64,000 nt of DNA, from positions 4,218,001 to 4,282,000 of the forward strand of contig OZ076409.1 in NCBI GenBank assembly GCA_964187785.1, written 5' to 3'. The position numbers were made by a program, and so were the translations under genes. This document shows positions 6,438 to 52,399 of this stretch, in pieces. The notes under the pieces are model-generated. The model saw only the letters and a program-made list of their open reading frames with translations. It was not told the origin of the DNA and searched no databases. This stretch comes from Amphiscolops sp. MND2022. Its lineage: Eukaryota. Within the stretch, counting starts at the first letter, position 1; each line of letters starts with the position of its first letter.

Positions 6438-7043
6438 TTAAGCTTCATGAACAGAATTGTCATGAACGTTTAGTTCAGGGTAATCATCGTTTAATTGATT
6501 CTCATACTGTCCGTTTCTTAAGCTACTCTTTGCGTTAAGATCTCGCTGAACTTCGGAATTTAGTTCCGGTCTCTCGGACGGAATGTCCCATCCCTTTCTG
6601 GTCCTGTGTCCTGATCTGGCCATGATAACATTTTGGATTTGAGGAAGTACTTGGGTACTTATCGCATCGTTTATGGCTCTCTGTATTTGGACGCTCACCG
6701 AATTCATCATTTCGTCCATTTCCCGTGAAATACGAGAGTTCAATTCGCTAGACAATCTGTTTATTTCAGCGCTAGAATCACCTGTGATAGAATTGCGATC
6801 ACATTCGGCATTCATCCTAGAGTCAATATTTCTCCTGGGTCTACCTCCGTTTCCGTCTTCAATATCAGACTCATTACTTGCAAAGCTCCTAGATCTCCTA
6901 GGTAAATTACTATTCAAGCTACCTTCTCTTTCTTGTGCACCAAAATGGTTTTCGCCTAACATGATATCCAGATTTTCAATATCGGATAACATCTCAAGTC
7001 CTCTAGACTTTCTCGCTTTCTTTTGCTTTCTAGTGGTGGGCAT
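6438..7043 (-). CDS. Truncated Gag N-terminus encoded in the 3' LTR, reading out 6 codons into flanking DNA
   Basis: 201-aa ORF nearly identical to aa 1-195 of the gag at 20165-21553; divergence begins exactly at the LTR end. Confidence 0.85.
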   Translation of the reverse strand: MPTTRKQKKARKSRGLEMLSDIENLDIMLGENHFGAQEREGSLNSNLPRRSRSFASNESDIEDGNGGRPRRNIDSRMNAECDRNSITGDSSAEINRLSSELNSRISREMDEMMNSVSVQIQRAINDAISTQVLPQIQNVIMARSGHRTRKGWDIPSERPELNSEVQRDLNAKSSLRNGQYENQLNDDYPELNVHDNSVHEA

Positions 7044-8353
7044 TGAAACAACTCCGAATCAACAATAAATTAATCAATACGGAAATAACAGCGTAGCCGT
7101 TTGGAAATCAATCTTTTCTAGAGTCGTATAGTATGAATTGTGTCCCGCTCAGGCTAAACACCGGTATTTATACCCCTGAGCGGGTGACACTCACATATTT
7201 TACATGTTTTCATCCAAGATTGACATCGTAAGGTATGTAATGCACTTGATTTTTACATATCTCTGGTATTTAACAGGTATGGTTTTGAAAGGTATTTGCA
7301 CCATAAGAATTTCCGTTTACATATTTCCTATATCATCGGAAAGCATCAATCACATATTTCTGTGAAATCCTGATTGGGAGAATTCCTGACATATTTGTCT
7401 CCCAAAATATAACATCAAACAATCAACATAATGCTAAATATCCTTAACGGTACTTCAAACAACATATCTATTCTACATATTATTATTGCAATGTCAACAA
7501 ATGTTAATCTCGTTGTTGGAATGCGAGGCTCGTGGCACTGGTATGCAGTGTTAACACGTGCCACCACGTGGCTATAGGTAAACGTAGGGGGAAGCAATTT
7601 CAAATAATACATGTCAAATCTATTTAAATATCACTACATTTCCCAAAAGGGCCGAAATTGGCCAAATCCTGATTAATTGCACAATACTAGGGGGAGAAAG
7701 GGTAAAAGACCTTATTCGGCCTTTGATCAGCATTTAGTTCATTTGGTCCCTTGAAGGGTACGTTGGTATTATTTCAATATTAAAACACCTCTAGAATAAT
7801 CCCCAACCAATATGGTTAATTATAGGGTACAGGTAATAAAGCATCATCCATTACGTTAAGACGGCCTAAGCCGGCCATTTGACCAAAGTACAAAACAATC
7901 CGTGGACATTAAGTTAATTGGCCATAATCGGCCGCTACCAAATCAAAGCCATATTTCACTCGTGAATTGAAGCGCTGTGATTGGTTGGAGGAATGAGCTC
8001 AAGTGACGTTTTTGGATTATTGCTGAGCGTCACTTGAACTCGTTTCCTTTACGTTGTACAGCTATATTGCTACGTATTACTTTCATAATCGCAAAGCACC
8101 TTTCAACTTTTGAACCACAATTACACTGTTTGGGTCTTCAAATGTAATTTTAACAGACTATTTTTTTATATGCAAATATATTAAGACTAGCAACATTAAC
8201 AAACGTACTATGTATTGTATAATCAAAATGGCAAAAAGTTTTTAAATTCCGTGTTTTAACCTGATCAATAGATGGGTAGTGTTCCGGGCACAAACTCTTG
8301 CCCGTTTGCCGATGTAGTCACTGTCGTACCGTCACAGGCGGCAGCCTGCGACA
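6458..8353 (-). repeat. 3' LTR of element 1 (1896 bp)
   Basis: About 98% identical by eye (~35 substitutions, one ~16-bp indel) to 20968-22878. TG...CA ends. Contains a copy of the first ~195 gag codons. Confidence 0.95.
7141..7189 (-). promoter_or_regulatory. Putative LTR core promoter: TATAAATA (7172-7165) inside an inverted repeat (5' LTR copy at 21651-21699)
   Basis: CCCGCTCAGG...CCTGAGCGGG perfect 10-bp arms flank the TATA box, ~125 nt upstream of the gag ATG; an Inr-like TTCATAC lies ~30 nt downstream of the TATA box. Confidence 0.55.
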
Positions 8354-9047
8354 CTGCGGGTGTGATGAAAAGAAAACAGCCAGCATTAAGTCCGTTTTCA
8401 TATGCTTCCTTTCTGAGTCTCGTGATGTATTCGGGTTCGTCTCTTGGTGTAGAACGCTGCATACACCATTTTACCTTTTCGTCTTTGATCGAGTCCACCG
8501 ACCGACCGCAAACCATGCATCCGGTATAAAGTACTTCGCTGACATTCTGGTAGGGTACTGAATTTTGTACATGGTATGACGCATGAAAGTTGCTCGGAGC
8601 TGGCCGGAGAAGGGGGGTGTCCACACTTGGACCCCTTTCGTGCTCTGGCGGGGACATAGGTGATTCCAAGACGGGCATTATTGTGTTACAGAGATCTATG
8701 CGCTTCTTCTCGAATTTCCTTGGCGGGGCATAGCACATTTCCCTATCAAAGTATTTAAGGCCCAGTTTCGGTGTCACCCCTTCTTCCATTTGAGATGTAC
8801 TTGGTCCAGCTCTCATTTCGTATTCGGGTTCATCCATAGTCATTACTCTGCTTCCGATTAACATTGGGCTAGACGTAACTTCTTTTTCAATCCGGACTAT
8901 CAGTTGCTCGGTGTCTGTCGAACAATCGGTTTCCCAGTCCGAGGACTCATCTTCACTACTGGATATGTAGATTACTGATTTACCGGAGTTATCAGAATCG
9001 TATTCTTCGAAGTCAAATAACTTCCTTGCGAGGTTATATTTACTCAT
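8265..9047 (-). CDS. Accessory ORF (260 aa) of element 1, sense strand, overlapping the 3' LTR
   Basis: Intact ATG ORF with acidic N-terminus, RKLF, VIYISSSEDE, PPRKFEKKR and CMVC motifs. The last ~29 codons lie inside the LTR. No family recognised. Confidence 0.8.
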   Translation of the reverse strand: MSKYNLARKLFDFEEYDSDNSGKSVIYISSSEDESSDWETDCSTDTEQLIVRIEKEVTSSPMLIGSRVMTMDEPEYEMRAGPSTSQMEEGVTPKLGLKYFDREMCYAPPRKFEKKRIDLCNTIMPVLESPMSPPEHERGPSVDTPLLRPAPSNFHASYHVQNSVPYQNVSEVLYTGCMVCGRSVDSIKDEKVKWCMQRSTPRDEPEYITRLRKEAYENGLNAGCFLFITPAVSQAAACDGTTVTTSANGQEFVPGTLPIY

Positions 9048-9929
9048 GATGGCTTTTTTCGCTATTTTGAAGCTTGTAGATGCAACTGTATCGTGATGAA
9101 GTTTTAGGGTAGAATGAATTTATCAAATCCGAGAGTTTAGCCGAGTAAGGTGTTTTCCCGAAGTTTCCAATTTGGCGGTTAGACCTCCGGTTAATCGTCC
9201 TGATCCGTCATAAACTTTTCAGAAAGGAATTCCATTATTAGTCGGCTCCCTTTGATGGCCTGATGTTTACCCTCCATCAGAGTCAACACTAGAAGAGGTG
9301 TGAATGACGCTCGACTTATGAATATCAACTACACCCGTCTCAAGTGGGTAATTAACGGGTCGCTTGTAAGCAATTAGCGGCACGCGTCACCAAAATTTCT
9401 CGCAATGGCTCCATCCAATCAGCGTTAAGCTTCGATAAATTGTAAAATTAAATAATAAAAATGGCGAAAATAATAAATCTAAATAATTCAAGATGGCGAA
9501 AATTCTAACTAAGGGTAACTGGACGAAACGGCAAAACAAGACAGGGCAAACGGCCATTACTGGCCTCTAACTAAATAAGCTGTAAACAACAAAGTTTTTT
9601 GTACACTTCGCTGGCAGACTCCATGTACAGAATAAATATGTAGATAATCCATAATATTAGTCTGGTAAGAATCTTCAGCCACGAACTCCAATCTTTCAAT
9701 TTTATTTCAATTCCATATTACTCCAATTCCATTTTTTTCCTGATCCCTCCGTATCCAATTCCTTATTTATTGAGTCTTCGTACGCACTTCCGGGCCTTCA
9801 ACTGCGCTGGTAGATCCCTCTTCCAGGCTTCGTCCGAAACTACCCATTTCCTCCGCCAATCTCGATCTTGTGTCTTGGCTATTCCACCCAGATTGGGACT
9901 GACTCCAAAAGGCAATTTCCTACAGCAGG
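9048..9929. promoter_or_regulatory. Putative internal bidirectional promoter region between the divergent accessory genes
   Basis: Non-coding interval between head-to-head ORFs; CCAAT (~9416) and two AA(A/G)ATGGCG YY1-like motifs (~9460, ~9490). Confidence 0.4.
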
Positions 9930-10095
9930 ATGTCTTCTAATCCAGGTTGGTTTCAGATTTATTTTGAACTAAGGTTTCAACTTGATCAGAGTTAAATCCT
10001 GTTCACTGATTGCTTCCTATTTCCAAAGTCAAACACGTGACAACACGTTTCATTCAATTTCACAAGTACTTCCGGAAGATTTCTAATGCGGTAAA

Positions 10096-13000
10096 ATGGA
10101 TTTCTTTCAAGGAAGCTCACCGCCAAATTTCATCTCTTTTTGTTTAGAGAATTATCCACCTGAAGATCAGACATTGCCTGCAGGTCCTTCTCAGACGCAA
10201 CCTCCCATGACCAGAGATGTTATTCCAGAAGTCCTTGCCTCGGCCAGTGCTTTTTATTCCCCACAAAGCGCCACTAGTGAGGTCGACGTTAATTCTTATG
10301 CTGACGCAATGGTACAGCACCTGGAATCCAAACAAGGAGCAGGCCAAGATAACCAAGCCACGGTCGGAGAAGAAGGAGAGTTAACGACCTCGGACGTTCT
10401 TGAAGGGCAGACGGACCAGGCGGTCCTGATACCTAGAGGAGCAAGCACCCCAATCCCCGTTGGAGGAACAGAAGAATCCCACTTGAGCCTGACAGCTTTG
10501 GAATCTGCGCTAGTAATCGCAACTTCTTCTGGTTCACAGTATCCTGAATTGTTGACAGCGGCAGAGGAAGTCCAGGGTGACCAATCTAGGACTGCTCCCC
10601 AATCCGAAGATGATAATACCTCTTCCGTGTATGAAGTGCCTGCCTTACCAGGTAATGAACCCAAAGTCCGTTTTTTAGCCGATCTGAGTGAAGGGGAGAA
10701 AACCTCAGAAGAAACCAGCAGTCTGGGAAAAACGGCATTGTATGGACACATCCCCGGCATTGATGAATCGGGAACTGAGGCGAGTGACGAGTCTGGACCG
10801 GTTACCCCACATCACCAGGACCCTATTGCTTCCACTTCCAGGGGACTAGATGACCAGTTGCCTGACTTGTCTGGGAGGTCACGAGCTATCCTCAAGACTT
10901 ATTTCTTGGAGGAGAAGGCCTTCAACCTTCCCCGAGGACACCCGACAGTAGCCTTCACTGAGCCGCAGATTTATCATTTGCTGCGGGTATTGACCGATGA
11001 GACTCTCAGAATGTCCCATACCAACATGGAGCAGATGATCCTAGATGCCGTTAGAGGTAGACCAACAGCGTTGCCATCACGGACTGATACCTTCCGTTCG
11101 AGAGCCCGAGCCGCGACTCCTTTCAGACAAGCTGAAAGTGATTCTAGCGATGCCGAAGCCGGGACGTTCACGTCTGGAGAATCGGACGACCAAGACACCC
11201 AACGTCATGCCGAGACAGGTGATTCGTCGTTTTCTGGTGGGAGTGACAGCGGAGGAGAAATGGCATTGATGTCAGCATCATATAAACCTGTCACAAGCCA
11301 CACTTGGGCCGAAACCGCTACTATGGTTGTAAGTGACGACCTAAGGGGCCAAGACACAGACCCTAGTAGTCAGGATGCTACCTTATCTGAAGTCAGGGAG
11401 CAGACCCTGAGTGGCAAGTCAAGGCGAAACACTCGAGCCAAGAAATCCCCAAAACCCAAACGACAGTCCCAACGGGGCGTGCCCATGCGCGAGGAGTTCT
11501 TCACCAAAATAGGGTGGACCAGATCCTTCATTTCCGGTCCCGCTGACCCTATTCATAACCCACATACGGTCTGGTGCCATATGTGTAAGAAGAACTTTTC
11601 AATTAAGTCCAAAGGTCCTCTTGAGATCCTCCGACACCACCGTACTGAAAAGCATCTGCGACGGGATCAGAGGTGTAGGTATGAGCACCTCAGGAGTGTC
11701 GACCCTGTGAGCGGGACGATTCAGCACCGAGTCAGAGGCCGTAATGGGAAAATCCTCAGTAAAATTGAGTTGGCGCGGGAACTGCCGAAGTTCATCCACA
11801 AAGAACTGATCGACATCGGGGAGCGTTTCCCGTTTTATGACGATTTCATCCGGGGCCGAACTACCACTTCAGTTACTCCCGAGTCGCGAGCCCGAACACA
11901 GCTGTGTCTGATTGGAGAGTACATCCCCAAACACGGCGACCTGTCAGTCCTCAGGAGAATGTGGGCGATGATCAGCTCATTCACCGATTATCAAGCTGCA
12001 CTCTGCGACTTTGACTGGGGGGAAGAGAGAGTGACTGTAAGTATTAGTGATAGCAGTAATAGAGACTTTAGGGCGTAAACCCAGGGGGTTTCTTCCTCCC
12101 ACGAACCGTGTTTTATTTTTCTGTGGTTTGTAGTTCAAGAGTGTATTTTTCAAGAGTGTTGTAGTATCTACATCTGTATACAAGTCCCCTCGTACGTGTA
12201 CTAATCTCGTTGTATTCCCGTCCAGTCTTAAGTGTCCTCCGATTGGCAATTCGAATCCGATTTCACATAGTGTTTCCCATTTCAGGCGATATTTCAACAT
12301 TTCTTCAATTGCGCCTTACAGAACATTGCTGAGCACGTAGCTTCGGAACAATGCTTTAGCCTGGAGTTCGAAGACAGTGGGACCAGCAGGTTCATGTCCC
12401 TGCGATTCTGGAAGGGTCGGGAACTCTGCAGAGTGACAGTGTGCAGAAGTGGACTACCGTCTTCGGACTTAGTGGGCGAACTGGGGTCCCTAGCCCGACT
12501 GTTCTCAGTGGTCTCTACCAAGGCAGATATAGTTGCCTGTTCGGGTTGTCCCGCTGAACTGCTCCGGACCATAGATGAAATGCCGACCACTACCAGGGCC
12601 GTGCAAAGCTGTTTTCGCTTCAGCCAGTTGGACCTGCCTCACCTGATGCATAAACTCAGCTACAGTGTTTTTGGCCATATTGATTTCTTTTCCGTGCTCA
12701 AAGGCCTCGTGATTTCCCTAGGCAGTTCTCTCCGCGAAGATTGGGTACAAAGGAGTCCTGAACTAGTTCGAGTTAGTGTCTTTCAATCATTTGGTGAAAT
12801 CTAAATAGGGAGGGGATCCGAGAATTGTACATCTGCGTAATATTTACCACCATACTTTCTCTTTTAGGCCATTTCCAGTTGCAGATTAGATCTCCAATCC
12901 CTCCCCACACTTTGCCAGGAACTCATAGATGAGTGGAAGTCGATCACGACTCACTTGACTTCTCGCGTTCCCCAGCCGCAAGGACAGGGGGTTAGGACAA

Positions 13001-14425
13001 GGGTGAGTTATGTGCCAAGTTCCCCCTTCAGCAAAATTGTAATCACCATAACCAGCTTGTCGAGCGTTGTAGGGTTGATAATAGGTGTCACTTCCTCCGT
13101 TTTTTGTTCCAGGTTCAAAGTTTCGAGTGGTCCCTCATTTGTGATGAGTTCTTCCTTGTCAAACTGGAGTTCTTTTACCACCTAATCAGCGATTGTACGT
13201 GTTCTACGGTGAATTTTAAGACTTTTCCTTTGGGGCCGGAACAGACCATTTTCTTGTTTCAGACACTTCCACTTTCGTCATCAACTTGCAGCGGCGGCGC
13301 GATTCCTCCTTTTACCTCTGTGGTGAGGTTTCCCGTTATATCTATAATTTGTGTTTCCGCTGTTACAACTCTGACACAATCCCCCTCGAGAATTCGTGGT
13401 TTCTCCTGCTAGGGTTCCAGATTACAGAGGGAACGTTCATGCCTGTGGAGGAGTTCCTAACCCGACTCCAAATGACAAACAAGGTGGCCCGAGCCTGTAA
13501 ATTGAAAGCAGAAGGCATCCATTCAGGGAAGAAAGTGGACAAGTCACTCGTCCAAAAGACCGCCTCAACAATGAAGGCTGAGTTCGTCCGAGATGGGCAA
13601 GCATACCTGCAGTACCTGATTGGCGAAGTCCTCCGACAAGCTGGGCTAAGCTCAAACATCGTTAAAGGGCTCGCTGCTTTTGACCCTTTCATTATGCTCA
13701 GAAGGCCTACAGAAGTGGCGCTCCGTCATTTTGACGTTCTCTACAGTACCTTCCTTCTCCGCTCATGGGTGACATCTTCCAATGAGTCTGCTTGTCGTGA
13801 CGAGTATGTTGGACTACTCGGCCACCTGCATGGCAATTATGCTCCTGATTTCGATATCACTCAACATTTCCGGGACTTAATCGATTTCCTCATGTCTCTC
13901 GAGTATATGCAGAACCGCGTTCATTTAGTGCATTTGTTCAAACTATGTTGTCTCTGTGCCACCTCCTGCAGTCCTGGTTACCCCATTGTCACTATGGGGA
14001 CACTTAACACAACAGGCTTCCAAAGTCGGTCCACTGACGTTGTTTTGCCTGCACAGAGCTATTTGTCCCGGGTACCAGAGTCCCTTGCTTATTGCGTTAC
14101 TGACCAGAAACTCAGTGATTTTTCGCTACTGGCTGCTTCCTTCGGGCGATCAGCTTTCTCACCAGAGTACGATCCATGGACCCACGTTGATGTCTTTGGG
14201 CGGGGTAAGATCTTCAAGTCTCTGGTTTCAACCTATCGCAGTGCCTCTTCTGATTCTGCTGAGCGGGTAAGAGGACTGGACAATCCAAATGTATCCATCA
14301 TGGGGGACGCGCCTGCTGTTCAGCCTCCCAGTGACACTAAACGAAGGCGTATGGAGAGAAGCTCATCAAGGTCGAGGGCCTCTTCTGTTACTCGGGAACT
14401 CACTCCTGGTTCTTCTAACCTTTAA
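10096..14425 (+). CDS. Spliced antisense accessory gene, hAT-transposase-derived (~1268 aa): exons 10096-12036, 12286-12771, 12868-13002, 13113-13194, 13263-14425; possible extra 5' mini-exon 9930-9945 spliced to 10148
   Basis: Four GT-AG introns (GTAAGT..TTTCAG, GTTAGT..TTTTAG, GTGAGT..TTCCAG, GTACGT..TTTCAG; phases 0,0,0,1) join the separate ORF-track pieces into one stop-free frame of 3807 nt. It has a CxxC-x17-H-x5-H zinc finger and hAT-like blocks (FSLEFEDS..MSLRFW, LIDEWKSI, DEFFLVKLEFF, LAAFDP, LVHLFKLCC). Confidence 0.85.
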
Positions 14426-14680
14426 GTGTACAAATGTATTTATGTACACTATTTCTGTAAACTTTGTTTATTTCTGTTATGATTTTTTCATTTCCATTTG
14501 TTTCTTTTGATTTCTTGATCCCATATTTATTCTCTCGCAAGGAATCCTTGGAATGCCCCATTATTTATTAAAAAACGCTTGAGGGGTTAAAAGATAAAAG
14601 AGATAGAAGAAAAGAACTCCTATTGTCGGGAAAATTCAATTCTTTAGTATCTAAAGTCTTCTGAGTAGTTTGGGGTAGGG

Positions 14681-17050
14681 TTAGGCCTGAGATTTCCCTC
14701 CTCTAGGGCTCAGACTTTCATTTCTAGCATCGCTTTCAGATATTTCGGGCACGATAATATCATCCCCCCTTTTTGGAGAATTCTGTGCGTCGTTTTCATT
14801 CGTCAAATTTCTTTCTGTGGGAATTTCATCATTTTTTGGTTTTTCATCCGTATTCGGCAAAGTTTTTTCTTGATTTTTCGGGTGAACGGCCGGATTCGGC
14901 CAATCAGATTTGTCATTGCTAGCCGCTTCACTGGCTTCTTTCCTTTTTGTGACGTCATGATTTAATCTTTCATTCCGGCTCCGCGCCGCGTGGTCAGCGT
15001 AACTTGTTTCGTCACTCGTGATTATGTAATCCGCTTCGTTCTCGGTTACGTCATTTGTATTCGTTTCTGCCGCATTCGGTTGCTCGCCATTCGGCATGCT
15101 GGTCGGAATAGTCTCGTTGCCTCGTGTAACTAGCTGCTCGCCAAAGTCGGTTTCCCACGTTATGACGTATAAATCATCTTGCGGAATGACAATTTCTTCG
15201 TCTGGCTGCAATTGTTGTTCTTGGAACTTGTCCTCAAGACGCTGATTAGGGACAAACTTTTTAAGGCGAATTCGATGTAATATTTGAGTCTTGTTTGTGT
15301 TGATTCGTCTCACGATATAATTTTCGTTAGGTAAAACTTTTTGGACTATAAATGGTCCAACCCACCGATAATCGCGGAATGGAATTTTTGATCCTTGATT
15401 GTCCGTTTTCGGCTGTAAGACAAAACAGTATTCGTTCTCCTTTAGTGGAGCGGCTTTTGCTTTGCGGTCGTAATATTCTTTGTACTTGATATACGACTGC
15501 ATAATGTTCTGCTTCGTTTTGTCAATCAGGATTTTTGTCCGGTTTTGGATTTCTTCAGCAAATTCGGTTGTGGGGTTAATTTGCTCGTTTGGATTATTTC
15601 CAAGCTTGTGATCCAAAATATTAAATGGAATTCTTCCATGAAATACTCTCGTTGGCTCACAACCGATTCTGGCGTGGTAAGTAGTATTATGATTCAGTAC
15701 TGCTAATGGCAAGTATTTGTGCCATTGTCGGCGATATTCTCCACATGCCATTTTGAGATTTGTTTTCAATGAGGCATGAGTTCGCTCCAATTTCCCAATT
15801 GTCTGCGGGTGTTTCGTCGTTGCACATTTGAGTGTGATGCTCAAAATCTGCGTAACCTCCGCAATAATTGTAGAAGTAAATGCAGTACCTTTATCAGTGA
15901 TAAGAGTCGTTGGTAAATATGAGTGTTTAGTAATGATGTCAATGAGCGCTTTTGCTACATTGATCGCTGATGCGTCCGTAAGGGGATATGCGAACAAATA
16001 TCGGGAAAATACGTCTATTGCTGTTAGGACATTTTCATACCCTCCACTTGGGGGGAGATTCGGTAAAAGGTCGATTTGCATGGCGTCTTCAGGTCCAAGG
16101 TCCCATTCGGGCAAGTTGAGCAGCTCAGGTGTCATCGTTGCGTTAGGGACTCTTTTGTCTCTGGCACATTGTTCGCACCCTTCTACCCACTTTTTGACGT
16201 GTTTAGCCATGCTAGGGTAGTAATACCTCTGTCGAATTTCCTGTAACATTTTTGAAATCCCAGGATGTTTATGTGCTGTCCCGTGGAGAGACTTAAGGAG
16301 TTCCTGAAGTAAATGTTGCGGGAGTAAAATTTGATGGTATTTAACATTCCCTGTTTCATCGAAATATTGCCTTGTCAGGATTTCGTCCTTTAGTACAATT
16401 CGTTCCAGATTGTTTGCGTAATGTCTATATCGGGCATCCTGATGCAGTAGATTTTCTGAATACTCTTCATGAAGCAGTTTTGCTTTCAATTGTTGTAGTA
16501 CCACATCTTTGGATTGTTCGATAATGATCTGGTTCGTTCTCTTCAATCGGACCTGTATGTCGGGGTGTTGCTTGACCAGACTTGTTGACAGAGTTTGTAT
16601 AGTAACAGTGGGCTCATCAGTTGCTGGATTTTTCCTGATTGCTTCTTTTCTTGCCCACAACTGTTCTTCTGTCTCATCTTCGTCATTGGTGTAGAAGATT
16701 TGTTCTTCTTGTGACACCCCTGCGGATTGGACATTGATTTCGATTGGTAGTGTTTGTACATCTTCACGAATTTTGATCACCAATTTGTCCTTCGGATCTG
16801 CTTCCAATCGGGACAAATAGTCGGCAGCTGTATTTTGTGCTCCCGGGATGTGCGCTATGACAAAATTGAACTGGATAACATAGTCACATGCGTTCCACAG
16901 TGCTGGGGGTATTATTTTCGTTTGGAAAAATCGTGTTACAGCTTTGTTGTCCGTAAGGATGATGACCGGTTTCGGCGCACCCCAGAAGATATGTCCAAAT
17001 TCTTTGAATGCAAAATAAATTGCAAGGAATTCCTTGGCATAAATTGACAT
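14681..17050 (-). CDS. pol: Pol, 3' part: RNase H C-terminus, integrase, GPY/F module and acidic tail (frameshifted from the 5' part)
   Basis: KEFLAIY..ILTDNK..ADYLSR (RH); H-x4-H..CEQC zinc-binding motif; QID, ITDKG, KLER (DDE); WVGPF. The native C-terminus probably continued in another frame as ..LRPNPTPNYSEDFRY* to ~14644. Confidence 0.95.
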   Translation of the reverse strand: MSIYAKEFLAIYFAFKEFGHIFWGAPKPVIILTDNKAVTRFFQTKIIPPALWNACDYVIQFNFVIAHIPGAQNTAADYLSRLEADPKDKLVIKIREDVQTLPIEINVQSAGVSQEEQIFYTNDEDETEEQLWARKEAIRKNPATDEPTVTIQTLSTSLVKQHPDIQVRLKRTNQIIIEQSKDVVLQQLKAKLLHEEYSENLLHQDARYRHYANNLERIVLKDEILTRQYFDETGNVKYHQILLPQHLLQELLKSLHGTAHKHPGISKMLQEIRQRYYYPSMAKHVKKWVEGCEQCARDKRVPNATMTPELLNLPEWDLGPEDAMQIDLLPNLPPSGGYENVLTAIDVFSRYLFAYPLTDASAINVAKALIDIITKHSYLPTTLITDKGTAFTSTIIAEVTQILSITLKCATTKHPQTIGKLERTHASLKTNLKMACGEYRRQWHKYLPLAVLNHNTTYHARIGCEPTRVFHGRIPFNILDHKLGNNPNEQINPTTEFAEEIQNRTKILIDKTKQNIMQSYIKYKEYYDRKAKAAPLKENEYCFVLQPKTDNQGSKIPFRDYRWVGPFIVQKVLPNENYIVRRINTNKTQILHRIRLKKFVPNQRLEDKFQEQQLQPDEEIVIPQDDLYVITWETDFGEQLVTRGNETIPTSMPNGEQPNAAETNTNDVTENEADYIITSDETSYADHAARSRNERLNHDVTKRKEASEAASNDKSDWPNPAVHPKNQEKTLPNTDEKPKNDEIPTERNLTNENDAQNSPKRGDDIIVPEISESDARNESLSPRGGKSQA

Positions 17051-19848
17051 CTTGATCTGTGCTGTGCTGGGGTGAAGGTTTTTGATCCATATGCGACCGG
17101 GGCATACGATTTTCTGAGTGATGTAAACTTCTGGCTTGGGTCGTCTTTGATTAGGACCGCGTACCCGGCTGCACCAAAACTTGCATCAGTCATTAGTGCT
17201 ATTTGCTTGTTGGGAATGGGTTGCTGTAGGGCCAAGTCGCAACATTTGTCTAGTGCTCTGTTGATTTCTTCGAATTGTTGGACTAATTTTTTCGATACTA
17301 GGACCTTTTCGTCACTTTTGAGCATTTTGTAGAATGGAGCAAGGCGTTCGGAGAGTCTTGGGACATAATTCCTGTAGTAGTTTAGGAATCCCAAATAGCG
17401 CTGTAAAGCCTTTTTCGACTTCGGGAATTTGGTCTTTTCCGGAAAGTTTTGCACATTCTGTTTCTGGGGTTTGACGCCTTGTGGGGTAATAGTCCGTCCG
17501 AGAAAATCAATTTCTTTTTCACCGAAGTGACATTTGTGCATTGTTAACTTAAGGCCTGCTTCCTGAATGCATTTGAACGTAGCTCTCAGGTTCGTCATGA
17601 GGTGATCAACATCATTGGCTGCGATGCCGATATCGTCCACATATTGGGCACACTGATCCGCTTTAATGACTTTGTCAAGGTATTCTCTCATGAAACTTGA
17701 GGATAGTGACCGACTAAGGCCTTGTGCCAATCGCCTGTAAGCGAATGTGCGACTGGCAAAATTGAAAGCCAACATTTCGATTGAGCGTTGGCCGGCCATT
17801 GGTAGGCAGTGGTATGCCTGCGAACAGTCTAATTTACAGAACAGTTTTTTGCCTGCCAAGTGTTGGGCAGCATCAACTAGAGTACTGACGGGGTGATTAT
17901 TGTTGATATAATCATCCGAGATGAGGTTGTTGATTTTTCTCAAGTCAACCAAGAGTCGGAGTTTCCCATTCGGTTTCTTTTGTGCGAATATTGGACTCGC
18001 ATATTTCGAAAATGGCAGTGTAGTTTTTATGCTATATTTGTGTAACATGGCTAATTCAACTAGGATGTCCTCCTTCAAGTTGATAGGAGCTGGAAGACTT
18101 TGACTATAGGCTGGGGAATCGCCCTTAGGCGTCAGTTTCACTTTGAATTCCTCGTTCATGCCTATATCAAATCGGTGTCGTGCAAAAATGTCATGGAATT
18201 CCACTAACAATTCCTCAATTTTCTCCTTTTCTTCAGGAGTAAGGGTGGAATTTTTCCAATCAAAGTTTTCTAAGAATTTTGCACGCGATTCTGCATCTGT
18301 AGTGGGGTCGAGTGTCTCCAGGTCCTGTAGGGCCTGTAACTCGCGTAGGATTCGTTTTTGTATAGGTGTGTGTTCCTCAGGATTTCCAGGATTTTCTGGA
18401 GTTGGGAACCAGTAATTTTCCGACTTTTGAGGATTTCTGTTTGTCTTGATCAGACTGCTGACAAAGTGGGCTGCCTGTTCTTGGTCGTTTTGCAAGAGGT
18501 GCCAGGTTGATGCCGGATCTACCGGTTTGACATATTTCATCTGCTCTGGCGTCATGACTGAGAAATTGGCAATGTGAAGTCCCTTTTTGAGTTTATAAGA
18601 ATGGTCTGTTAAATTGTTCACTGGTATCATTATGTTGCCATCATTCAGAGTGACCAAAGCTGGGCAAAATGTGATGTCGCCTTCTTTATGTAGAAGGTCG
18701 CTCGGTTGTAAAATTCCAGTGACAGCATTCTCAGAGTAGAGTAGGGAATTGGTCCTAATTAGGACTTTATCGTTTGGTGGAATAGTTATCTCAATAGGGT
18801 TGAGAATTGGTTCCAATACATTTGAATACTTATGGTCAGCTGTTTTGAGCTGCATCGAAAAGAACGGGAAGGTCAGTATCCCTTGTCTCATGTCCAGCAC
18901 TGTATGGTTTCTTTGAAGGAACATTAGTCCAATAATCGGACCTGTCAGATGTTCCATCACTATGAAGATTTCATGGAACTCAATGTCACCAACTTCGAAT
19001 TTGAGCTCTATGGTACTCTTAGGAGTTTCCAGTTGCCCATTAGCGACCATGATTTGGAAATTCGGAAGCGGACCTTCCCGGATAACGGATTGTGGAGATA
19101 AAAGTCGGATTTTCCGGAGGTCCATTTCAGGAATTGCACTGGACAGCGCTCCAGTGTCAATGAGTCCGTCAATGGTCAATTCCCCAAAGTCCATTAGGAA
19201 ATACAACATGCGTTTTTTGCATTTGAGGTTGATGTTGGTTGACAGGGGTACACAGTCTCGTTCACCGTCTCTGGTGATTAAGACTTTTTGGAACTGTTTC
19301 TCGTCTAGCAATGATTGTGGTATGGGTTCAACATTGCTGTCATGGGTCTCAGTCCCCAATGGGTTTGGGAACACTGGATGGTTTGTGCCATCATTCATTT
19401 GCCATTTTTCAATTAGCGCTCTTGTTTTCTTGTTATGGGTAATTGGAGGGTTCTGGTGGACTGTTCTATTATAGTGTTCAATATCGTCCAGGACATATTG
19501 AAATTGTAGTGAATCTTGGTTGTAAAGCTCGGTGTCCCAGTAGGGATCTCTGCCGTAGTCTGGATCGATGTATGTTGGATTGTAATCATCGATTAGGGGA
19601 ATGGGCCTGAAGCGGGTGGTGAAGGTAGTGGTGTAATCAGGGTCCCAAACAGGAATTGGTTTCTGGAATAAATGGGTGTTATTGTAGGTGATGATGGTAG
19701 CTTTTTCCATCTGTTGCTGCCAGACAACAGAGGGATAGCCCATCAATTGCTGATTGTATTGGTGGAAAGTTTGTGTTGGAGGGTCCGATCTGATGTACTG
19801 TCGGACAGAAATTATTTCGTTATATTGGAGTCGTGGCGAAGTTAGTTT
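16936..19848 (-). CDS. pol: Pol, 5' part: aspartic protease, reverse transcriptase and RNase H N-terminus
   Basis: LIDTGA (protease), LRLLVDLRKIN, LAQGL, YVDD (RT), TDAS (RH). The frame is open from the gag-terminal slippery site; frameshift lesion near 17055. Confidence 0.95.
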   Translation of the reverse strand, partial: KLTSPRLQYNEIISVRQYIRSDPPTQTFHQYNQQLMGYPSVVWQQQMEKATIITYNNTHLFQKPIPVWDPDYTTTFTTRFRPIPLIDDYNPTYIDPDYGRDPYWDTELYNQDSLQFQYVLDDIEHYNRTVHQNPPITHNKKTRALIEKWQMNDGTNHPVFPNPLGTETHDSNVEPIPQSLLDEKQFQKVLITRDGERDCVPLSTNINLKCKKRMLYFLMDFGELTIDGLIDTGALSSAIPEMDLRKIRLLSPQSVIREGPLPNFQIMVANGQLETPKSTIELKFEVGDIEFHEIFIVMEHLTGPIIGLMFLQRNHTVLDMRQGILTFPFFSMQLKTADHKYSNVLEPILNPIEITIPPNDKVLIRTNSLLYSENAVTGILQPSDLLHKEGDITFCPALVTLNDGNIMIPVNNLTDHSYKLKKGLHIANFSVMTPEQMKYVKPVDPASTWHLLQNDQEQAAHFVSSLIKTNRNPQKSENYWFPTPENPGNPEEHTPIQKRILRELQALQDLETLDPTTDAESRAKFLENFDWKNSTLTPEEKEKIEELLVEFHDIFARHRFDIGMNEEFKVKLTPKGDSPAYSQSLPAPINLKEDILVELAMLHKYSIKTTLPFSKYASPIFAQKKPNGKLRLLVDLRKINNLISDDYINNNHPVSTLVDAAQHLAGKKLFCKLDCSQAYHCLPMAGQRSIEMLAFNFASRTFAYRRLAQGLSRSLSSSFMREYLDKVIKADQCAQYVDDIGIAANDVDHLMTNLRATFKCIQEAGLKLTMHKCHFGEKEIDFLGRTITPQGVKPQKQNVQNFPEKTKFPKSKKALQRYLGFLNYYRNYVPRLSERLAPFYKMLKSDEKVLVSKKLVQQFEEINRALDKCCDLALQQPIPNKQIALMTDASFGAAGYAVLIKDDPSQKFTSLRKSYAPVAYGSKTFTPAQHRSRCQFMPRNSLQFILHSKNLDISSGVRRNRSSSLRTTKL

Positions 19849-21553
19849 TTTGACTCATCATTAGAATATGAGGATTGGGAGCCCGATGATGTCGGTTTGG
19901 TCTGAGGTTTCTGAGCCTTGGGATTGGGCTTATTGTCAGTTGCGTCCTCAGGTCTAGTGCGCTTGGGTTTAAGATGTGCACCAGCACCTTGCCAACATCT
20001 CTCCTCCGGGTGGTTCTTTTTCCCACAAGTGCCACACTCCGGATATGTTTTCTTCTGCGTCGACTTGCCTTGTTGGGCATCTTTTTCTTTTTCTTTTTCA
20101 GTTTTTTGCAGTCCTTGACCATGTGGCCCTTTTCCTTGCAGTAATTGCAAGTAATGTCTGACATTTATCCAGTGGACAGAGGAGTTTTAGATTTTGTAGT
20201 CGAGGAGGTCATTGTGGCCATTGGTAGGTCATCTGACTCCTCGAGGGCGTTAAGCTCTAATTCTCTCTCCAAATGAGCAACTATCTCATCGTAGGAGCCA
20301 TTTTCTAATCTGGCCATGTTGACGGACCGCTTCAGTTTTGGTGGCAGTTTTGCATAAAGCAAGCTGTCAATCATTTTCTGCGCATGATCACCAAACGCCT
20401 TCTCGGCTCCCTGGTTTAATTCTTCGAGAAAATCAGGCAGTTTCATTGTATTGGGATCGAAGACCAGACGGTGCCATTTATGTTTGGCAGTCGCCTGTGA
20501 CTCGGGTTTGAGGTATTTTTGTCTAAAAATGACTAATACGTCCTCTATAGTTTGTCGGTTGCTTGAGCTGATATTTCTGAATGTCTGAAGAGCATTCTTT
20601 CTCAATAAAGAGTGGAAGTGGTTGATCTTCATTTGCTCAGTCATTTCTGGCTGCATCTTGATCATAGTGTGAAATAGGTCTTCGAACAGCTCGAATTTTT
20701 CGCTTTTGCCATCGAATGTCATGGTATTTGAGTTGACTGGGCGTATGGTACGTTGTTGGGCTGTCGGTCTATTCTGCATTGTAGTCAAGACGTCTGCCAG
20801 TCGAGTGATGGAGTCAGAGTCAGCAGCCGTGGTGATTCTCTCTTGTGCTGGGATCGCCGTGTCGAGGTTGATGTCCTCAAAGGACCTGTCGAGATGATTT
20901 CTGGATGAGATTCGTCCTGTGAGAAACTCAGGAACTTGATTTGGAGATTCGTTGTCTCCTGTCACCATGTCATGAACGTTTAGTTCAGGGTAATCATCGT
21001 TTAATTGATTCTCATACTGTCCGTTTCTTAAGCTACTCTTTGCGTTAAGATCTCGCTGAACTTCGGAATTTAGTACCGGTCTCTCGGACGGAACGTCCCA
21101 TCCCTTTCTGGCCCTGTGTCCTGATCTGGCCATGATAACATTTTGGATTTGAGGAAGTACTTGGGTACTTATCGCATCGTTTATGGCTCTCTGTATTTGA
21201 ACGCTCACCGAATTCATCATTTCGTCCTTTTCCCGTGAAATACGAGAGTTCAAATCGCTAGACAATCTGTTTATTTCAGCGCTAGAGTCACCTGTGATAG
21301 AATTGCGATCACATTCGGCATTCATCCTAGAGTCAATATTTCTCCTGGGTCTACCTCCGTTTCCGTCTTCAATATCAGACTCATTACATGCAAAGCTCCT
21401 AGATCTCCTAGGTAAATTACTATTCAAGCTACCTTCTCTTTCTTGTGCACCAAAATGGTTTTCGCCTAACATGATATCCAGATTTTCAATATCGGATAAC
21501 ATCTCAAGTCCTCTAGACTTTCTCGCTTTCTTTTGCTTTCTAGTGGTGGGCAT
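19842..21553 (-). CDS. gag: Gag with two zinc knuckles (premature stop at 20165-20167, frameshift near 20095)
   Basis: Capsid-like FDGKSEKFELFEDLF region; CNYCKEKGHMVKDC and CGTCGKKNHPEERC knuckles. ATG is at 21553, inside the 5' LTR. Confidence 0.92.
19845..19851 (-). promoter_or_regulatory. Programmed -1 ribosomal frameshift site A AAA AAC (gag to pol)
   Basis: TCA AAA AAC TAA ends gag; the -1 frame reads LTSPRLQYNE..QQLMGY without stops into pol. Confidence 0.8.
20956..20967 (-). promoter_or_regulatory. Primer-binding site TGGTGACAGGAG (tRNA-Leu-like), located within gag
   Basis: TGG immediately follows the CA end of the 5' LTR. 11/12 match to the common animal tRNA-Leu PBS TGGTGTCAGGAG (tRNA identity tentative). 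Confidence 0.75.
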
Positions 21554-22878
21554 TGAAACAACTCCGAATCAACAATAAATGAATCAATACGGAAATAACA
21601 GCGTAGCCGTTCGGAAATCAATCTTTTCTAGAGTCGTATAGTATGAATTGTGTCCCGCTCAGGCTAAACACCGGTATTTATACCCCTGAGCGGGTGACAC
21701 TCACATATTTTACATATTTTCATCCAAGATTGACATCGTAAGGTATGTAATGCACTTGATTTTTACATATCTCTGGTATTTAACAGGTATGGTTTTGAAA
21801 GGTATTTGCACCATAAGAAATTCCGTTTACATATTTCCTATATCATCGGAAAGCATCAATCACATATTTCTGTGAAATCCTGATTGGGAGAATTCCTGAC
21901 ATATTTGTCTCCCAAAATATAACATCAAACAATCAACATAATGGTAAATATCCTTAACGGTACTTCAAACAACATATCTATTCTACATATTATTATTGCA
22001 ATGTCAACAAATGTTAATCTCGTTGTTGGAATGCGAGGCTCGTGGCGCTGGTATGCAGTGTTAACACGTGCCACCACGTGGCTATAGGTCAACGTAGGGG
22101 GAAGCAAATTCAAATAATACATGTCTAATCTATTTAAATATCACTACATCACCAGATAAGGGTATTTCCCAAAAGGGCCGAAATTGGCCAAAAATTGATT
22201 AATTGCACAATACTAGGGGAGAAAGGGTAAAAGACCTTATTCGGCCTTTGATCAGCATTTAGTTCATTTGGTCCGTTGAAGGGTACGTTGGTATTATTTC
22301 AATATTAAAACACCTCTAGAATAATCCCCAACCAATATGGTTAATTATAGGGTACAGGTAATACAGCATCATTCATTACGTTAAGACGGCCTAAACCGGC
22401 CATTGGACCAAAGTACAAAACAATCCGTGGACATTAGGTTAATTGGCCATAATCGGCCGCTACCAAATCAAAGCCATATTGCACTCGTGAATTGAAGCGC
22501 TGTGATTGGTTGGAGGAATGAGCTCAAGTGACGTTTTTGGAATATTGCTGAGCGTCACTTGAACTCGTTTCCTTTACGTTGTACAGCTATATTGCTACGT
22601 ATTACTTTCATAATCGCAAAGCACCTTTCAACTTTTGAACCACAATTACATTGTTTGGGTCTTCAAATGTAGTTTTAACAGACTAATTTTACATATGCAA
22701 ATATATTAAGACTAGCAACATTAACAAACGTACTATGTATTGTATAGTCAAAATGGCAAAAAGTTTTTAAATTCCGTGTTTTAACCTGATCAATAGATGG
22801 GTAGTGTTCCGGGCACAAACTCTTGCCCGTTTGCCGATGTAGTCACTGTCGTACCGTCACAGGCGGCAGCCTGCGACA
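20968..22878 (-). repeat. 5' LTR of element 1 (1911 bp)
   Basis: Matches 6458-8353; TG...CA; flanked by TSD AGAAT. Confidence 0.95.
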
Positions 22879-23087
22879 AGAATCTAATTCAATCCCAATT
22901 TCAAACAATCTTTTGCCAGGATCTGGTGAGACGAACGAATTGAAGTTAGCGTAAAAGTAAAGAAGCATCAATTGGCTTCTTCACGAAAGTTCATTATTCT
23001 AGCGCAACCGAAGAATCAGTGATTTCAGGTAAAATAGAAATTCCAGAGAATGTTTGAATTGGATTACGTAGGGTCCAAACTTTTTCA

Positions 23088-26488: not shown

Positions 26489-26688
26489 NNNNNNNNNNNN
26501 NNNNNNNNNNNNNNNNNNNNNNNNNNNNNNNNNNNNNNNNNNNNNNNNNNNNNNNNNNNNNNNNNNNNNNNNNNNNNNNNNNNNNNNNNNNNNNNNNNNN
26601 NNNNNNNNNNNNNNNNNNNNNNNNNNNNNNNNNNNNNNNNNNNNNNNNNNNNNNNNNNNNNNNNNNNNNNNNNNNNNNNNNNNNNNNN
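26489..26688. other. Assembly gap (200 N)
   Basis: Run of N. Confidence 1.
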
Positions 26689-35399: not shown

Positions 35400-36160
35400 T
35401 TTTACTGGGTCGATGATGGGACCAGTTGGAGAGAACCGGCAATTTTGGGTCTACAAGCGGCAATTTGGGATCTTCAGTGCTGAATGATGTTGGATTTCTG
35501 CTGCAACTGCAATCTCTTTGATGTTGATGGGCGGCGATGAATGGGTCCAGACAGTTGATGGTGGGCTATATGCGGGTGCTGTGTCCCTTGTGATCTTCGG
35601 TGAACTTCAGAATGCGATGTACATATATGTTTTATGTGGAGAATTTTCGTCGAGTATCGCTTCAGGAGAGTCTTTTTGAAGTTCGTCATGGGTAGAAACA
35701 TTGTCATCCGATGGCCAGTTAGAGACTATTTTTTCTTTTTCCAATGGAGTACGTGTTCTATTGGATAGGTTTTTGGAAAAGGCTTTTGGTCGGATAGTAG
35801 ATAAATTCGTTTGAGTAGTGGCATGACATTTGTGAATGAAGGTATCGGGATGATTATGCAATATAAGGTATTGCTGAAAATTTATTTTATTTATTTGGAA
35901 TGTTTGAAATATATTGAAGAGAATCATCTTCGTTAGTTGTGGATCTGCCTTGTTTTCTTGGGTCATCTGTGTATATAACGTGGATGAATGTTTTTTCAGA
36001 ATGAGAGATCGAAGGCAGTTTGAAGCAATTGGGAGCTGTATGAAAGTGTTTGAAGTCATTTGATTGAAGAGGTGAGATGGAAATTTCAAATTGCTTGATG
36101 AGGAAAGGCGTTGAGGCTGCGATTGGGAAGAAGAGGAAGAGGTGAAGAAAGAAGTTTATT
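35400..36160 (-). pseudogene. Degenerate post-env accessory ORF C of element 2
   Basis: Overlapping ORF fragments 35607-36089 and 35474-35707 with the element's A/C-rich coding-strand bias; function unknown. Confidence 0.4.
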
Positions 36161-36209
36161 CACCTGAAATAGATTAGTTTGTTTACATTTGAATTCCTTT
36201 TTAATTTAG

Positions 36210-36770
36210 ATTTTATTGTTGACTTTTTCTTGATATATTTTATTGTGTTATATCTTTTTAATTTTCGTTTTCAAGTTGGTGTATTTTGGATATCTTTTGA
36301 AGAGTCTTTAAATATCTTTCATTTGATGTCTTATTTGTTAAAATCGGTTCATTAAAAAGAGGAGCATTTGAAGCCTTTTGTTAAAAATTTTTATGTCCCA
36401 TTTCAAAATCTTCGTATAAGTTCAATTTAATGCTGTCTTTTTTTGGTTAATATAGGCTGTAAATATGTTCAACGAGTATTTTTAAGTAAGTACTAGCTAG
36501 TTTCGACAGGTTGTTAAGGAACTAAGAGTCAAGTATTAAAATTATTAAAGCTATTATCCCTAATTACCAGTTAAGATTGTTGGAGTTTTCAAATATGTAG
36601 TTGATTTCATCCAAGGATGTGCGTACACACGAAGCTGATTGGCTAACTCTTGTCGTATCAAATGTCATATTTTGCAACAGGTCTCGAGCTTGTTCTAGTG
36701 TATTTACTATATCGGCAATAGTAAGAAGTCCATCCTTTTTTGGTTTATGATATGGTTTTGAAATGTCCAT
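36210..36770 (-). pseudogene. Degenerate post-env accessory ORF B (starts MDISKPYHKPKKDG)
   Basis: ATG overlaps the stop of ORF A (TAATG at 36772-36768). 68 aa intact, then apparently disrupted. Confidence 0.45.
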
Positions 36771-37852
36771 TAATTGTTTGTTTTTTTTTGTATTTCTTCG
36801 GTAGGAGGAAAGTTTTCTGGTTGAGGAATGTCATTTGTTGGTTTCTTTGAAGGTTCTTGATTTGTTCTTTTGTGTTCTTTTATATTTCTTTTTGTAAGGA
36901 TTGAAATGAGATGAGAAATAATGAATAACAGTTCATTATTTGAATATCCCTTTTTTGCTTTAGCGTAATAATAAGATTTTTCACAATCTCCAAGACGTTG
37001 GGAGGCAATGGGTTGAATTGGAGGAAGAGGGTCTGATATATTTTTGGGTATATCTTCTTGTAATACCGAATCATCGTTTAGAATGAGATTTTCTTGTGGT
37101 ACTATAATTGGTCTTTTTGGATTTTCATTTGGAAGGAAGAGAAAACTTTGTTTCAATGGATCGTAATTGCTTAATTTTCCTTCTATTTTTGTGTGATCTA
37201 TTAGGTATTCTGCGTTTAAAGTGAACGGCGATGTATATTTTGAAATGAAGAAAAGATAGTTTTCAGGTTCTTTGTATTGAAGAAATTTTTGGTAGGTAAC
37301 ATGGTGAGATTTCTTTATTTGGTATGGCAACAAATTAGCATGCATCTCTTCAGTTTTGAGATCATACAGAGATGGTCTGAGGAATTTATATTGAAGAGAG
37401 AGAATTTTCACCTTGTTATTTAACCACCAATCATATGGGGTAAAAAATTTGGAGGCAATTGAAGTATGATAGACTTTTTAAATTCTCTGATGATGAATTT
37501 GTATTTTGTTGGAATCATTTATGAAGAAGTTAAATGAGATTGAAATGTGAATTGTCTTTAGGATAAAATGGGAATTAAATCACAATCTCGATCTTCATCT
37601 TGTTTGGATGGCTTTATGAAAGGAGGACAAGCGCCAGATTCCATAAAAGGTTTATCGGCGGTTATGTCAGGGTATTTTCGTTTTTGAGATTTCGCGTTTA
37701 TATGATCAATTTGTTCAACTGGAATGGTTTCCATGGGTTCTTGAAATTGTGAAGATGAATTATTATCTTCGTTGAATGGTTATATTCAAAGGAGATGCAA
37801 GCAATTCAGAGGGACTAGAGTTAACTACATCAATTTCAGGCAAGGATTCCAT
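36770..37852 (-). pseudogene. Degenerate post-env accessory ORF A
   Basis: 213-aa open segment 36770-37411 with disrupted upstream part back to an ATG at ~37852; weak similarity to the old element near 23150-23500. Confidence 0.55.
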
Positions 37853-38268
37853 TTTAACTTGCGTGATTTTGTAGCGCTAAAATAATTATTTTCAACACAT
37901 GATAAGGTTGAATTTAAATTATTGAGGAGTTTTTGTTCTTTTACTTTGAGTTTTCATAAAATAGAAGTTCAAATTGTACTTACAATATTGGAATAATTGT
38001 TGGTCAGTTGTGAGTTCAAAACATCAACAATCACAGTGGCATCTATTCCCGGAATAGAGACTTCTGTAAATTCGCAGTTTAGAGGGGGCAAAAAATCGTT
38101 CCAAGTTAAGTTGTTGGGTTGAGTTGAGGTGGGCAACTGTCCAAACAAGAAGTTTTGGGTAGAATGAAGGTAAATTTGTGAAGTTATTCGTTGTCAATTT
38201 TGTGAACTTTTTAAAGCTTCATTTGCTTTATTTGGTTATTGTCTTTTCCTTTTGGTTATTATCTTTTC

Positions 38269-41994: not shown

Positions 41995-42030
<36 letters not shown>

Positions 42031-42454
42031 GAGTTTGGAGAATTGGAGTATTGTAAGGTGTTTTTGTTATTCTAACGGGAGAATATGGAGTGGATGGACT
42101 AGGGTTTGAGGGTGAGGAATCCAGTATGTCTGTATCTGAATTTAAATATGCTGTATATTCGGATAGTGTTTGGAATGAATGAGTTGAACTAGATGATGAA
42201 TTGTTTTTGTTCTTTTACTTTGAGTTTTCATAAAATAGAAGTTCAAATTGTACTTACAATATTGGAATAATTGTTGGTCAGTTGTGAGTTTCGCAGTTTA
42301 GAGGGAGCAAAAAATCGTTCCAAGTTAAGTTGTTGGGTTGAGTTGAGGTGGGCAACTGTCCAAACAAGAAGTTTTGGGTAGAATGAAGGTAAATTTGTGA
42401 GGTTATTCGTTGTCAATTTTGTGAACTTTTTAAAGCTTCATTTGCTTTATTTGG

Positions 42455-45922: not shown

Positions 45923-45959
45923 AGTTAAAATACAGTTCTATATTTAAGTCCTGAATATG

Positions 45960-47325: not shown

Positions 47326-47446
47326 TTGAAGTATTATTATTCACTTTCTAATCATACGCTTCACTAATGCAATCTTCTTTTTAGTGTTCTTTCTTCAGGT
47401 TACTATTTACCTTTACTTGTCTCTAGGTTTTTCATTCAACTTTCAT

Positions 47447-52300: not shown

Positions 52301-52399
52301 CAACTATAAGGAATAATTGTGTTTGCAATTTCAGTGATTTGACATGTATGGACTTCAAATTTTGTACTATCTTTGTCATTTGTAGATTTAACATTTACT

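Follow-up and report, generated by a model that had tools for sequence, protein, structure and literature searches.

A multi-intron antisense gene as a standard part of an abundant Ty3/gypsy retrotransposon family in Amphiscolops sp.

We analyzed a 64-kb stretch of the Amphiscolops sp. MND2022 genome (contig OZ076409.1, positions 4,218,001 to 4,282,000; hereafter, the window) and found that a large antisense gene with several introns is a standard part of an abundant family of Ty3/gypsy long terminal repeat (LTR) retrotransposons. The window contains a 16.4 kb element of this family with the gene inside it, on the plus strand, between pol and the 3' LTR and antisense to gag-pol. The gene is real, bears introns, and is under protein-level selection across old element lineages. 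Our reading, to which we assign a probability of about 0.8, is that the window holds one copy of a family whose standard equipment includes a separately transcribed antisense gene at this position.

A five-exon gene antisense to gag-pol

The exons and introns of the gene are arranged as follows (positions are those of the window):

10096..12036, plus strand: exon 1, 647 codons, with a conserved ATG, an N-terminal part of acidic, low-complexity sequence, a basic patch, a CxxC..H..H finger and the first part of the core
12037..12285, plus strand: intron 1 (GT..AG), 249 nt
12286..12771, plus strand: exon 2, 162 codons
12772..12867, plus strand: intron 2 (GT..AG), 96 nt
12868..13002, plus strand: exon 3, 45 codons
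13003..13112, plus strand: intron 3 (GT..AG), 110 nt
13113..13194, plus strand: exon 4, 82 nt
13195..13262, plus strand: intron 4 (GT..AG), 68 nt
13263..14425, plus strand: exon 5, 386 codons and the stop, with a helical domain and a basic serine-rich tail

Once joined, the exons make up 3807 nt, enough for 1268 codons and the stop codon, and contain no internal stop; the 3' ends of all four introns are pyrimidine-rich. Between the stop codon of the gene (14423-14425) and that of pol (14681), which face each other, lie 255 bp of spacer. An earlier description made from the letters of the window (the original prediction) had proposed a stop-free frame of about 1268 codons running through four GT-AG introns at 10096-14425, and its exon and intron coordinates proved exact. 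It had also placed the gene inside LTRs bounded by a target-site duplication, and we confirmed both the LTR pair and the duplication, the 5-bp AGAAT.

This structure is preserved well beyond the window. Seven aligned copies, which are 64-99% identical, all retain the ATG and the stop, and none of their 28 GT..AG pairs is lost. Relative to the window, the introns of a copy from the 86% identity tier are 67-72% identical and its exons 84-91%, while for a copy from the 81% tier the corresponding values are 54-65% and 77-85%. The retention of every splice pair, the start and the stop, together with introns that have diverged more than the exons, goes far beyond what would be expected by chance. 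Intron 1 measures 222-249 nt in the sublineage of the window and 71-75 nt in four other lineages; some 150-175 nt were gained or lost inside it between sublineages.

Public open reading frame (ORF) predictions from other assemblies also contain the splice signals, read through as protein: they include a translated pyrimidine tract and AG before exon 2 and a translated GT donor after it. Two of these ORFs link exon 1 to exon 2 by reading through intron 1, and one does likewise for exons 2 and 3 by way of intron 2. In a distant homologue from another assembly (P0143), exon-4-like and exon-5-like sequence is contiguous, and intron 4 seems to be missing, or is read through, in that lineage.

We estimated the ratio of nonsynonymous to synonymous substitution rates (dN/dS) over the conserved part of the gene, from exon 1C to exon 5 (2397 nt). 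Between lineages the ratio was 0.09 (synonymous divergence, dS, 0.66), 0.06, 0.04 and 0.04. Between the window and a copy 98.7% identical to it, the ratio was 0.61, with 20 nonsynonymous and 10 synonymous differences. Low values between lineages and a high one for the near-identical pair fit selection in active lineages followed by neutral decay after insertion. The original prediction had suggested that family copies be checked for intron conservation and for dN/dS below 1; the introns are conserved, and dN/dS between lineages is 0.04-0.09. The spliced frame is uninterrupted in three of the seven copies examined in full. The gene also has many relatives elsewhere: an exon-5 profile matched 534 representative clusters of public proteins (50% identity) at E<=0.001, 131 of them at E<=1e-30, and each of the 150 clusters listed has at most 418 residues, which is the size of a single exon.

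The pattern of substitution bears on a rival explanation, in which the antisense transcript itself matters, controlling the element by way of double-stranded RNA or small RNAs, with the protein of secondary importance. Such a transcript would be complementary to the genomic RNA in its 3' part, and the accessible part of one article discusses the idea for plant antisense ORFs (PMC7264820). However, purifying selection on the amino acids is strong, and the synonymous sites and introns are free to change, a pattern that an RNA-only role would not predict. We regard a role confined to the RNA as quite improbable.

Distribution of the gene across the retrotransposon family

In the window's own 1.07-Gb assembly, exon 5 gave 7683 first-look candidates. 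The 107 copies that were scored, in a list that favours the best matches, are 63-100% identical to the window, and 86 of them contain no stop. Six loci of 10 kb, drawn from all exon-5 identity tiers (98, 86, 81, 68, 63 and 65%), carry without exception these five exon blocks, unchanged in order and convergent with a gypsy pol, and exons 2-5 were present in all 35 other loci that we fetched. A query from another genome reached deeper lineages in this genome, where 104 of the 108 rows listed were free of stops. The gene converges on pol even where its sequence is very different from that of the window, as in lineages L052 (exon 5 37% identical and integrase 62%, the integrase being the only pol part that this locus holds), L055 (exon 5 32%, reverse transcriptase (RT) 69%) and L054 (exon 5 21%, RT 46%).

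Among loci with downstream flank, the convergent arrangement of gene and pol was found in 9 of 12, and the three exceptions are a single lineage, which we call the '415-aa type'. A junction probe of 901 bp, spanning the gene end, the spacer and the pol end, gave 40 other matches, 38 of which hold gene sequence contiguous with pol (27 covering the full probe, 1 cut off within pol, and 10 beginning in the last 90-120 nt of the gene). At the other end, three other lineages are collinear with the window over the LTR and the 1.7 kb that lie upstream of the gene. The shared position across family copies, which the original prediction had suggested as a check, is present in both the flanked loci and the junction matches.

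These results also speak to the possibility that the gene is a nested DNA transposon of the ordinary sort, or else a repeat of its own that sits by chance in the window copy. Its antisense orientation would suit such an origin, and nothing else does. We found no terminal inverted repeats around the gene, the longest flanking inverted matches being 11-12 nt, and no 8-bp target duplication, the 8-bp flanks being unrelated; the original prediction had named both as signs of a hAT transposon. With neither sign seen and the upstream LTR and spacer collinear in other lineages, nothing points to a nested DNA transposon. The position of the gene beside pol in most flanked loci and junction matches argues against it as well, and we consider this explanation extremely improbable.

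Some observations weigh against our reading of the gene as standard, separately transcribed equipment of the family. Exon 1 carries frameshifts in four of the seven copies examined in full, and two of the 40 junction matches begin exactly at the spacer. When the pairing is counted from the pol side, 19 of 111 listed integrase matches are paired with a listed exon-5 match, where each list holds the best ~110 of thousands of matches. The splice junctions, the start site and the poly(A) site of the antisense gene are predictions from sequence. In addition, we infer the function of the product: most likely it binds nucleic acids in the nucleus and serves the element, for example in the control of transcription, in targeting or in evading silencing. 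Finally, there is no pol around the '415-aa type' in the 24 kb sampled, which means that the link between gene and pol is not universal.

The '415-aa type' takes its name from an exon-5 ORF of 415 codons, and its exons 2 and 5 are 48% and 36% identical to those of the window. Its units (L053 with L056, L057 with L058, and also L051) are 99.3-99.7% identical over more than 17 kb, and the copies L053 with L056 and L057 with L058 sit on C10 and C2 of this genome. Downstream of it lie tandem repeats of 88 bp and 185 bp. In seven of seven paired copies, a probe from the downstream region was found again, with its orientation unchanged, at a distance of ~34 kb (34-50 kb). This lineage may be a giant or non-autonomous derivative.

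In the lineages where gene and pol occur together, the two modules have not always diverged in step. The window compares with four other copies as follows:

Window and L032: nucleotide identity 85.5% in the gene (exons 1C-5) and 87.4% in pol; dS 0.66 in the gene and 0.56 in pol
Window and L033: nucleotide identity 79.5% in the gene and 89.4% in pol; dS 1.43 in the gene and 0.50 in pol
Window and L034: nucleotide identity 68.2% in the gene and 89.7% in pol; dS saturated in the gene and 0.47 in pol
Window and L036: nucleotide identity 67.2% in the gene and 91.7% in pol; dS saturated in the gene and 0.28 in pol

Of the four, L036 is nearest to the window in pol and farthest from it in the gene, while L032 shows the opposite ranking. 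The LTR is discordant too, being 81% identical to that of the L034 lineage and patchily ~70% identical to that of the L033 lineage. Because the extra divergence of the gene is also synonymous, it points to exchange of modules between elements and not merely to faster evolution of the protein. On these comparisons, the gene and pol modules have been swapped among lineages by recombination.

The remaining features of the element in the window are the following:

6453..6457: target-site duplication AGAAT, left copy, 5 bp
6458..8353, minus strand: 3' LTR in element orientation, 1896 bp, TG..CA ends
8265..9119, minus strand: conserved sense-strand ORF, 284 codons stop to stop, ending 89 nt inside the 3' LTR
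9120..10095: spacer separating the sense-strand ORF from the antisense gene, presumed promoter region of the latter, collinear in three other lineages
14426..14680: spacer between the converging stop codons, 255 bp, with a poly(A)-like signal on each strand (plus, ATTAAA at 14567; minus, AATAAA at 14533-14528)
14681..19854, minus strand: pol (protease, RT, RNase H, integrase), with a frameshift near 17060
19820..20967, minus strand: gag region (DUF1759-like part and CCHC knuckle), with an in-frame stop at 20165-20167
20950..20967, minus strand: primer-binding-site-like sequence starting TGG and abutting the 5' LTR, as read from the sequence
20968..22878, minus strand: 5' LTR, 1911 bp, TG..CA ends
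22879..22883: target-site duplication AGAAT, right copy, 5 bp

The two LTRs are 97.3% identical. The TGG-starting minus-strand sequence, which adjoins the LTR at 20967, fixes the orientation of the element; a purine run was looked for at the 3' LTR and no clear polypurine tract was seen. Gag-pol extends from ~20.9 kb down to 14681, and Pfam recognized zf-CCHC, gag-asp_proteas, RVT_1, RT_RNaseH, Integrase_H2C2 and rve in it, in that order and all on the minus strand. The stop in gag falls between the DUF1759-like part and the CCHC knuckle. The frameshift in pol is lacking in six other copies, whose frames are continuous there, and we rejected a conserved programmed frameshift; its appearance was an artefact that arose when the two pol ORFs of the window copy served as queries. 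The antisense gene is uninterrupted in the window copy.

The original prediction had described the gene as occupying the env position. It does lie between pol and the 3' LTR, but the description needs a qualifier because it shares that interval with another conserved ORF, which is in the sense orientation (9119 to 8265). This ORF stands head-to-head with the antisense gene. In three other lineages it has 62-73% amino acid identity, and it is open in one of the three. Its proportion of nonsynonymous differences (pN) is 0.19-0.26, against a proportion of synonymous differences (pS) of ~0.8, so that its nonsynonymous sites are constrained while the synonymous ones are saturated. Pfam gave no match to it. 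From this pattern of change, the sense-strand ORF is very probably a second accessory coding region.

Elsewhere in the window, Rfam and transfer RNA scans gave no match over the 64 kb, and no host gene was recognized within it. At ~35500-55500 the minus strand holds another gypsy-like element, now degraded, with gag at 53322-54089, RT/RNase H at 49872-50636 and integrase at 48505-49362. Its ORFs at 42458-43696 and 38910-39452 match the Monjiviricetes fusion glycoprotein family, a viral-type envelope-like gene. Between 24000 and 56000 the G+C content is low (0.30-0.36) and the GC skew strongly positive (0.2-0.48 per 2-kb window). The assembly is interrupted by 200 N at 26489-26688.

The encoded protein and its origin

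The protein begins with a long, fast-evolving and disordered region, residues 1-455, that is acidic (71 acidic versus 35 basic residues), low in hydrophobic residues and composed to 59% of S, T, P, G, Q, E, D or N; it is the least conserved part of the protein. After residue 455 come a basic patch, a C2H2 (BED-like) zinc finger of the pattern CxxC-x14/15-H-x4/5-H, a core that continues through exons 2-5, and a basic serine-rich tail. The CxxC..H..H pattern is conserved across homologues. The conserved core comprises ~700 residues, of which the last 330 are predicted to form a helical domain. For exon 5, an AlphaFold model built on a 43-sequence alignment is all-helical, with a mean predicted local distance difference test (pLDDT) score of 76.5 and values mostly above 85 for residues 10-233. 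An earlier run on a shallow alignment had reached a pLDDT of 40.5 and was unusable. The structure prediction covered exon 5, downstream of exons 1C-4, where a putative RNase H-like core would lie.

Comparisons with known domains and structures gave no match. Pfam found nothing in any exon even at E<=10, and Transposase_28 was not matched in any of them; three deep lineages were equally devoid of Pfam matches, zf-BED included. Profile searches of the PDB sequences returned no match, and Hermes was not found. Foldseek, run with the exon-5 model, returned nothing in the PDB at E<=0.001 and nothing in BFVD, and re-inspection of the Foldseek list added nothing.

The original prediction had proposed that the gene descends from a hAT DNA transposase. 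In the form we consider here, the gene would be a hAT transposase captured by an ancestral gypsy element and kept as a catalytically inactive accessory protein that binds DNA or oligomerizes. This is a proposal about origin and is compatible with our reading of the gene as standard equipment of the family. Several short motifs in the gene presumably resemble hAT blocks in order and spacing, and the conserved finger is in keeping with such an origin. The ESM-Atlas neighbours point the same way: the nearest clusters for exon 5 include ones that carry Dimer_Tnp_hAT (60% of members) and FAM200-GTF2IRD2-like, with scores of 0.90 and 128-133 shared features, and the neighbours of the finger region carry zf-BED_2 or zf-BED at a score of 0.77, although the tool itself grades scores in this range as no more than leads. 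Like hAT transposases and their derivatives (Hermes, PDB 8edg; FAM200/GTF2IRD2-like proteins), the window protein has a BED-like finger upstream of a large core, and the modelled helical domain of exon 5 may bear a weak structural likeness to the insertion domain of Hermes.

However, no statistical test supports descent from a hAT transposase, the Pfam, hhalign, PDB profile and Foldseek comparisons all being negative. Beyond the lack of Pfam matches in any exon and the failure of the PDB and Foldseek searches to reach Hermes or any other structure, none of 43 diverse exon-5 homologues matches a Pfam hAT family at E<=0.1. In the same genome the Dimer_Tnp_hAT profile (PF05699), used as a positive control, gave 150 scored matches and 2215 first-look candidates. 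We also aligned the finger, exon-2, exon-5 and whole-core alignments with hhalign against five full-length transposases of this genome that carry Dimer_Tnp_hAT, zf-BED and DUF659. The resulting probabilities were 0.07-4.8%, that is, below 5% in every comparison. A search of this genome for DUF4371 gave no match, but it gave none in control genomes either and is uninformative. As for the catalytic motifs that had been proposed, the residues concerned are not acidic or are not conserved in deeper lineages. The putative catalytic positions are thus not conserved acids, and if the gene is hAT-derived it is not an active transposase. Unlike the hATs, it has no detected dimerization domain, no terminal inverted repeats and no 8-bp duplication; it has introns and moves within a retrotransposon.

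Taken with the evidence on both sides, a hAT origin is one that we entertain but would put short of an even chance. Ordinary hAT elements are plentiful in the genome (loci L043-L047), several with open frames of 597-697 codons, so that a source for a capture event exists in principle. A fuller scenario, which we offer as rather doubtful, is that an animal retrotransposon clade took up a hAT transposase long ago, stripped it of catalysis, and kept it as an intron-bearing antisense gene. Its variants would have been shuffled by recombination, and it would perhaps serve as a module for DNA-binding specificity or against silencing, alongside the small sense-strand accessory ORF. If this were true, it would be a rare case of a class I element domesticating a class II enzyme for its own use.

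The lack of any detected transposase signature suits another origin, an old transduction of a host gene for a non-transposon zinc-finger nuclear protein that the element has kept since. The ordinary cellular features of the gene, namely its introns, its own start codon and its poly(A)-like signal, would fit such a source. However, database searches found no longer or annotated cellular homologue, which is weak evidence, and the database relatives are all nameless pieces of ORF size. Moreover, all homologues with readable context in this genome lie in repeated DNA. We consider a host-gene origin unlikely.

Proposed working, known parallels and significance

Whatever the source of the protein, our model of an antisense accessory gene carried by the family accounts for the persistence of its introns. 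Introns that lie antisense to the genomic RNA of a retroelement escape splicing and persist through retrotransposition. On the strand of the genomic RNA the four introns of this gene offer no splice sites, and they therefore survive reverse transcription and are inherited by every new copy. Our model suggests that the antisense messenger RNA has its start upstream of the ATG, within the ~1-kb spacer or else within the 3' LTR, and is spliced four times. It would end at the ATTAAA of the 255-bp gap, short of the pol stop. We hypothesize that a nuclear, nucleic-acid-binding product is then made and acts for the element.

Similar arrangements have been described in other retroelements. In deltaretroviruses, the antisense gene HBZ is small and has a spliced form, with one intron in one isoform. 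HBZ and, on our model, the gene in the window both encode a nuclear regulator from the minus strand of a retroelement, close to the 3' LTR; the likeness is one of working, by analogy, and not of family. HBZ has no sequence relation to the window gene and belongs to an infectious retrovirus. Human T-lymphotropic virus (HTLV) has an antisense promoter in its 3' LTR, according to the available part of one article (PMC7264820).

Among Ty3/gypsy elements, the closest parallels in position come from fungi and plants. An antisense gene named brtn was reportedly described by Zhao et al. in 2011. It is an additional antisense gene of Boty-like Ty3/gypsy elements in Botrytis cinerea and Sclerotinia, as cited in the accessible parts of two articles (PMC7264820, PMC8365987). 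As these parts describe it, brtn resembles the window gene in being gypsy-borne, antisense to gag-pol, located between pol and the 3' LTR, and present across family copies. It differs in its fungal host and, compared by description alone, in that the window gene is very large (1268 codons, four introns). The window element further differs from Boty in its conserved sense ORF beside the antisense gene.

In plants, the antisense ORFs called aORF-3R likewise lie between pol and the 3' LTR. They include gene23 of maize Grande, those of rice RIRE2, and ORF4 of Silene Retand, which carries a Transposase_28 domain; the antisense gene of Grande is transcribed from its own promoter and has a nuclear product (PMC7264820 and PMC11963269, in their available parts). 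On the same partial sources, these ORFs share with the window gene their position and orientation, their conservation in most copies, and the lack of a known role. They differ in kingdom, in that the accessible text mentions no introns for them, and in that the window gene has neither Transposase_28 nor any other Pfam domain.

The antisense accessory architecture is thus already known from plant and fungal gypsy elements. The present case stands apart in its probable animal host, to which the Monjiviricetes-type fusion glycoprotein ORF of the neighbouring gypsy element also points, in a large gene with four conserved introns, in how deeply that gene is conserved, in the modular exchange, and in the second, sense-strand ORF. 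A literature search with partial cover of the transposon literature found neither a multi-intron antisense gene in any animal LTR element nor a hAT-derived gene in any retrotransposon.

The backward-running extra genes known from LTR elements, in plants and in one fungal family, still have no assigned role. The family described here offers a strong system in which to study such genes, as it combines thousands of copies, many diverged lineages in one genome, purifying selection and module swapping, and the four conserved introns would point to separate antisense expression. There is also a warning for annotation: gene predictors will call the antisense gene a host gene, and ORF callers split it into unnamed fragments, as has happened in public protein collections. 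More broadly, retroelements other than retroviruses can hold complex spliced accessory genes over long periods.

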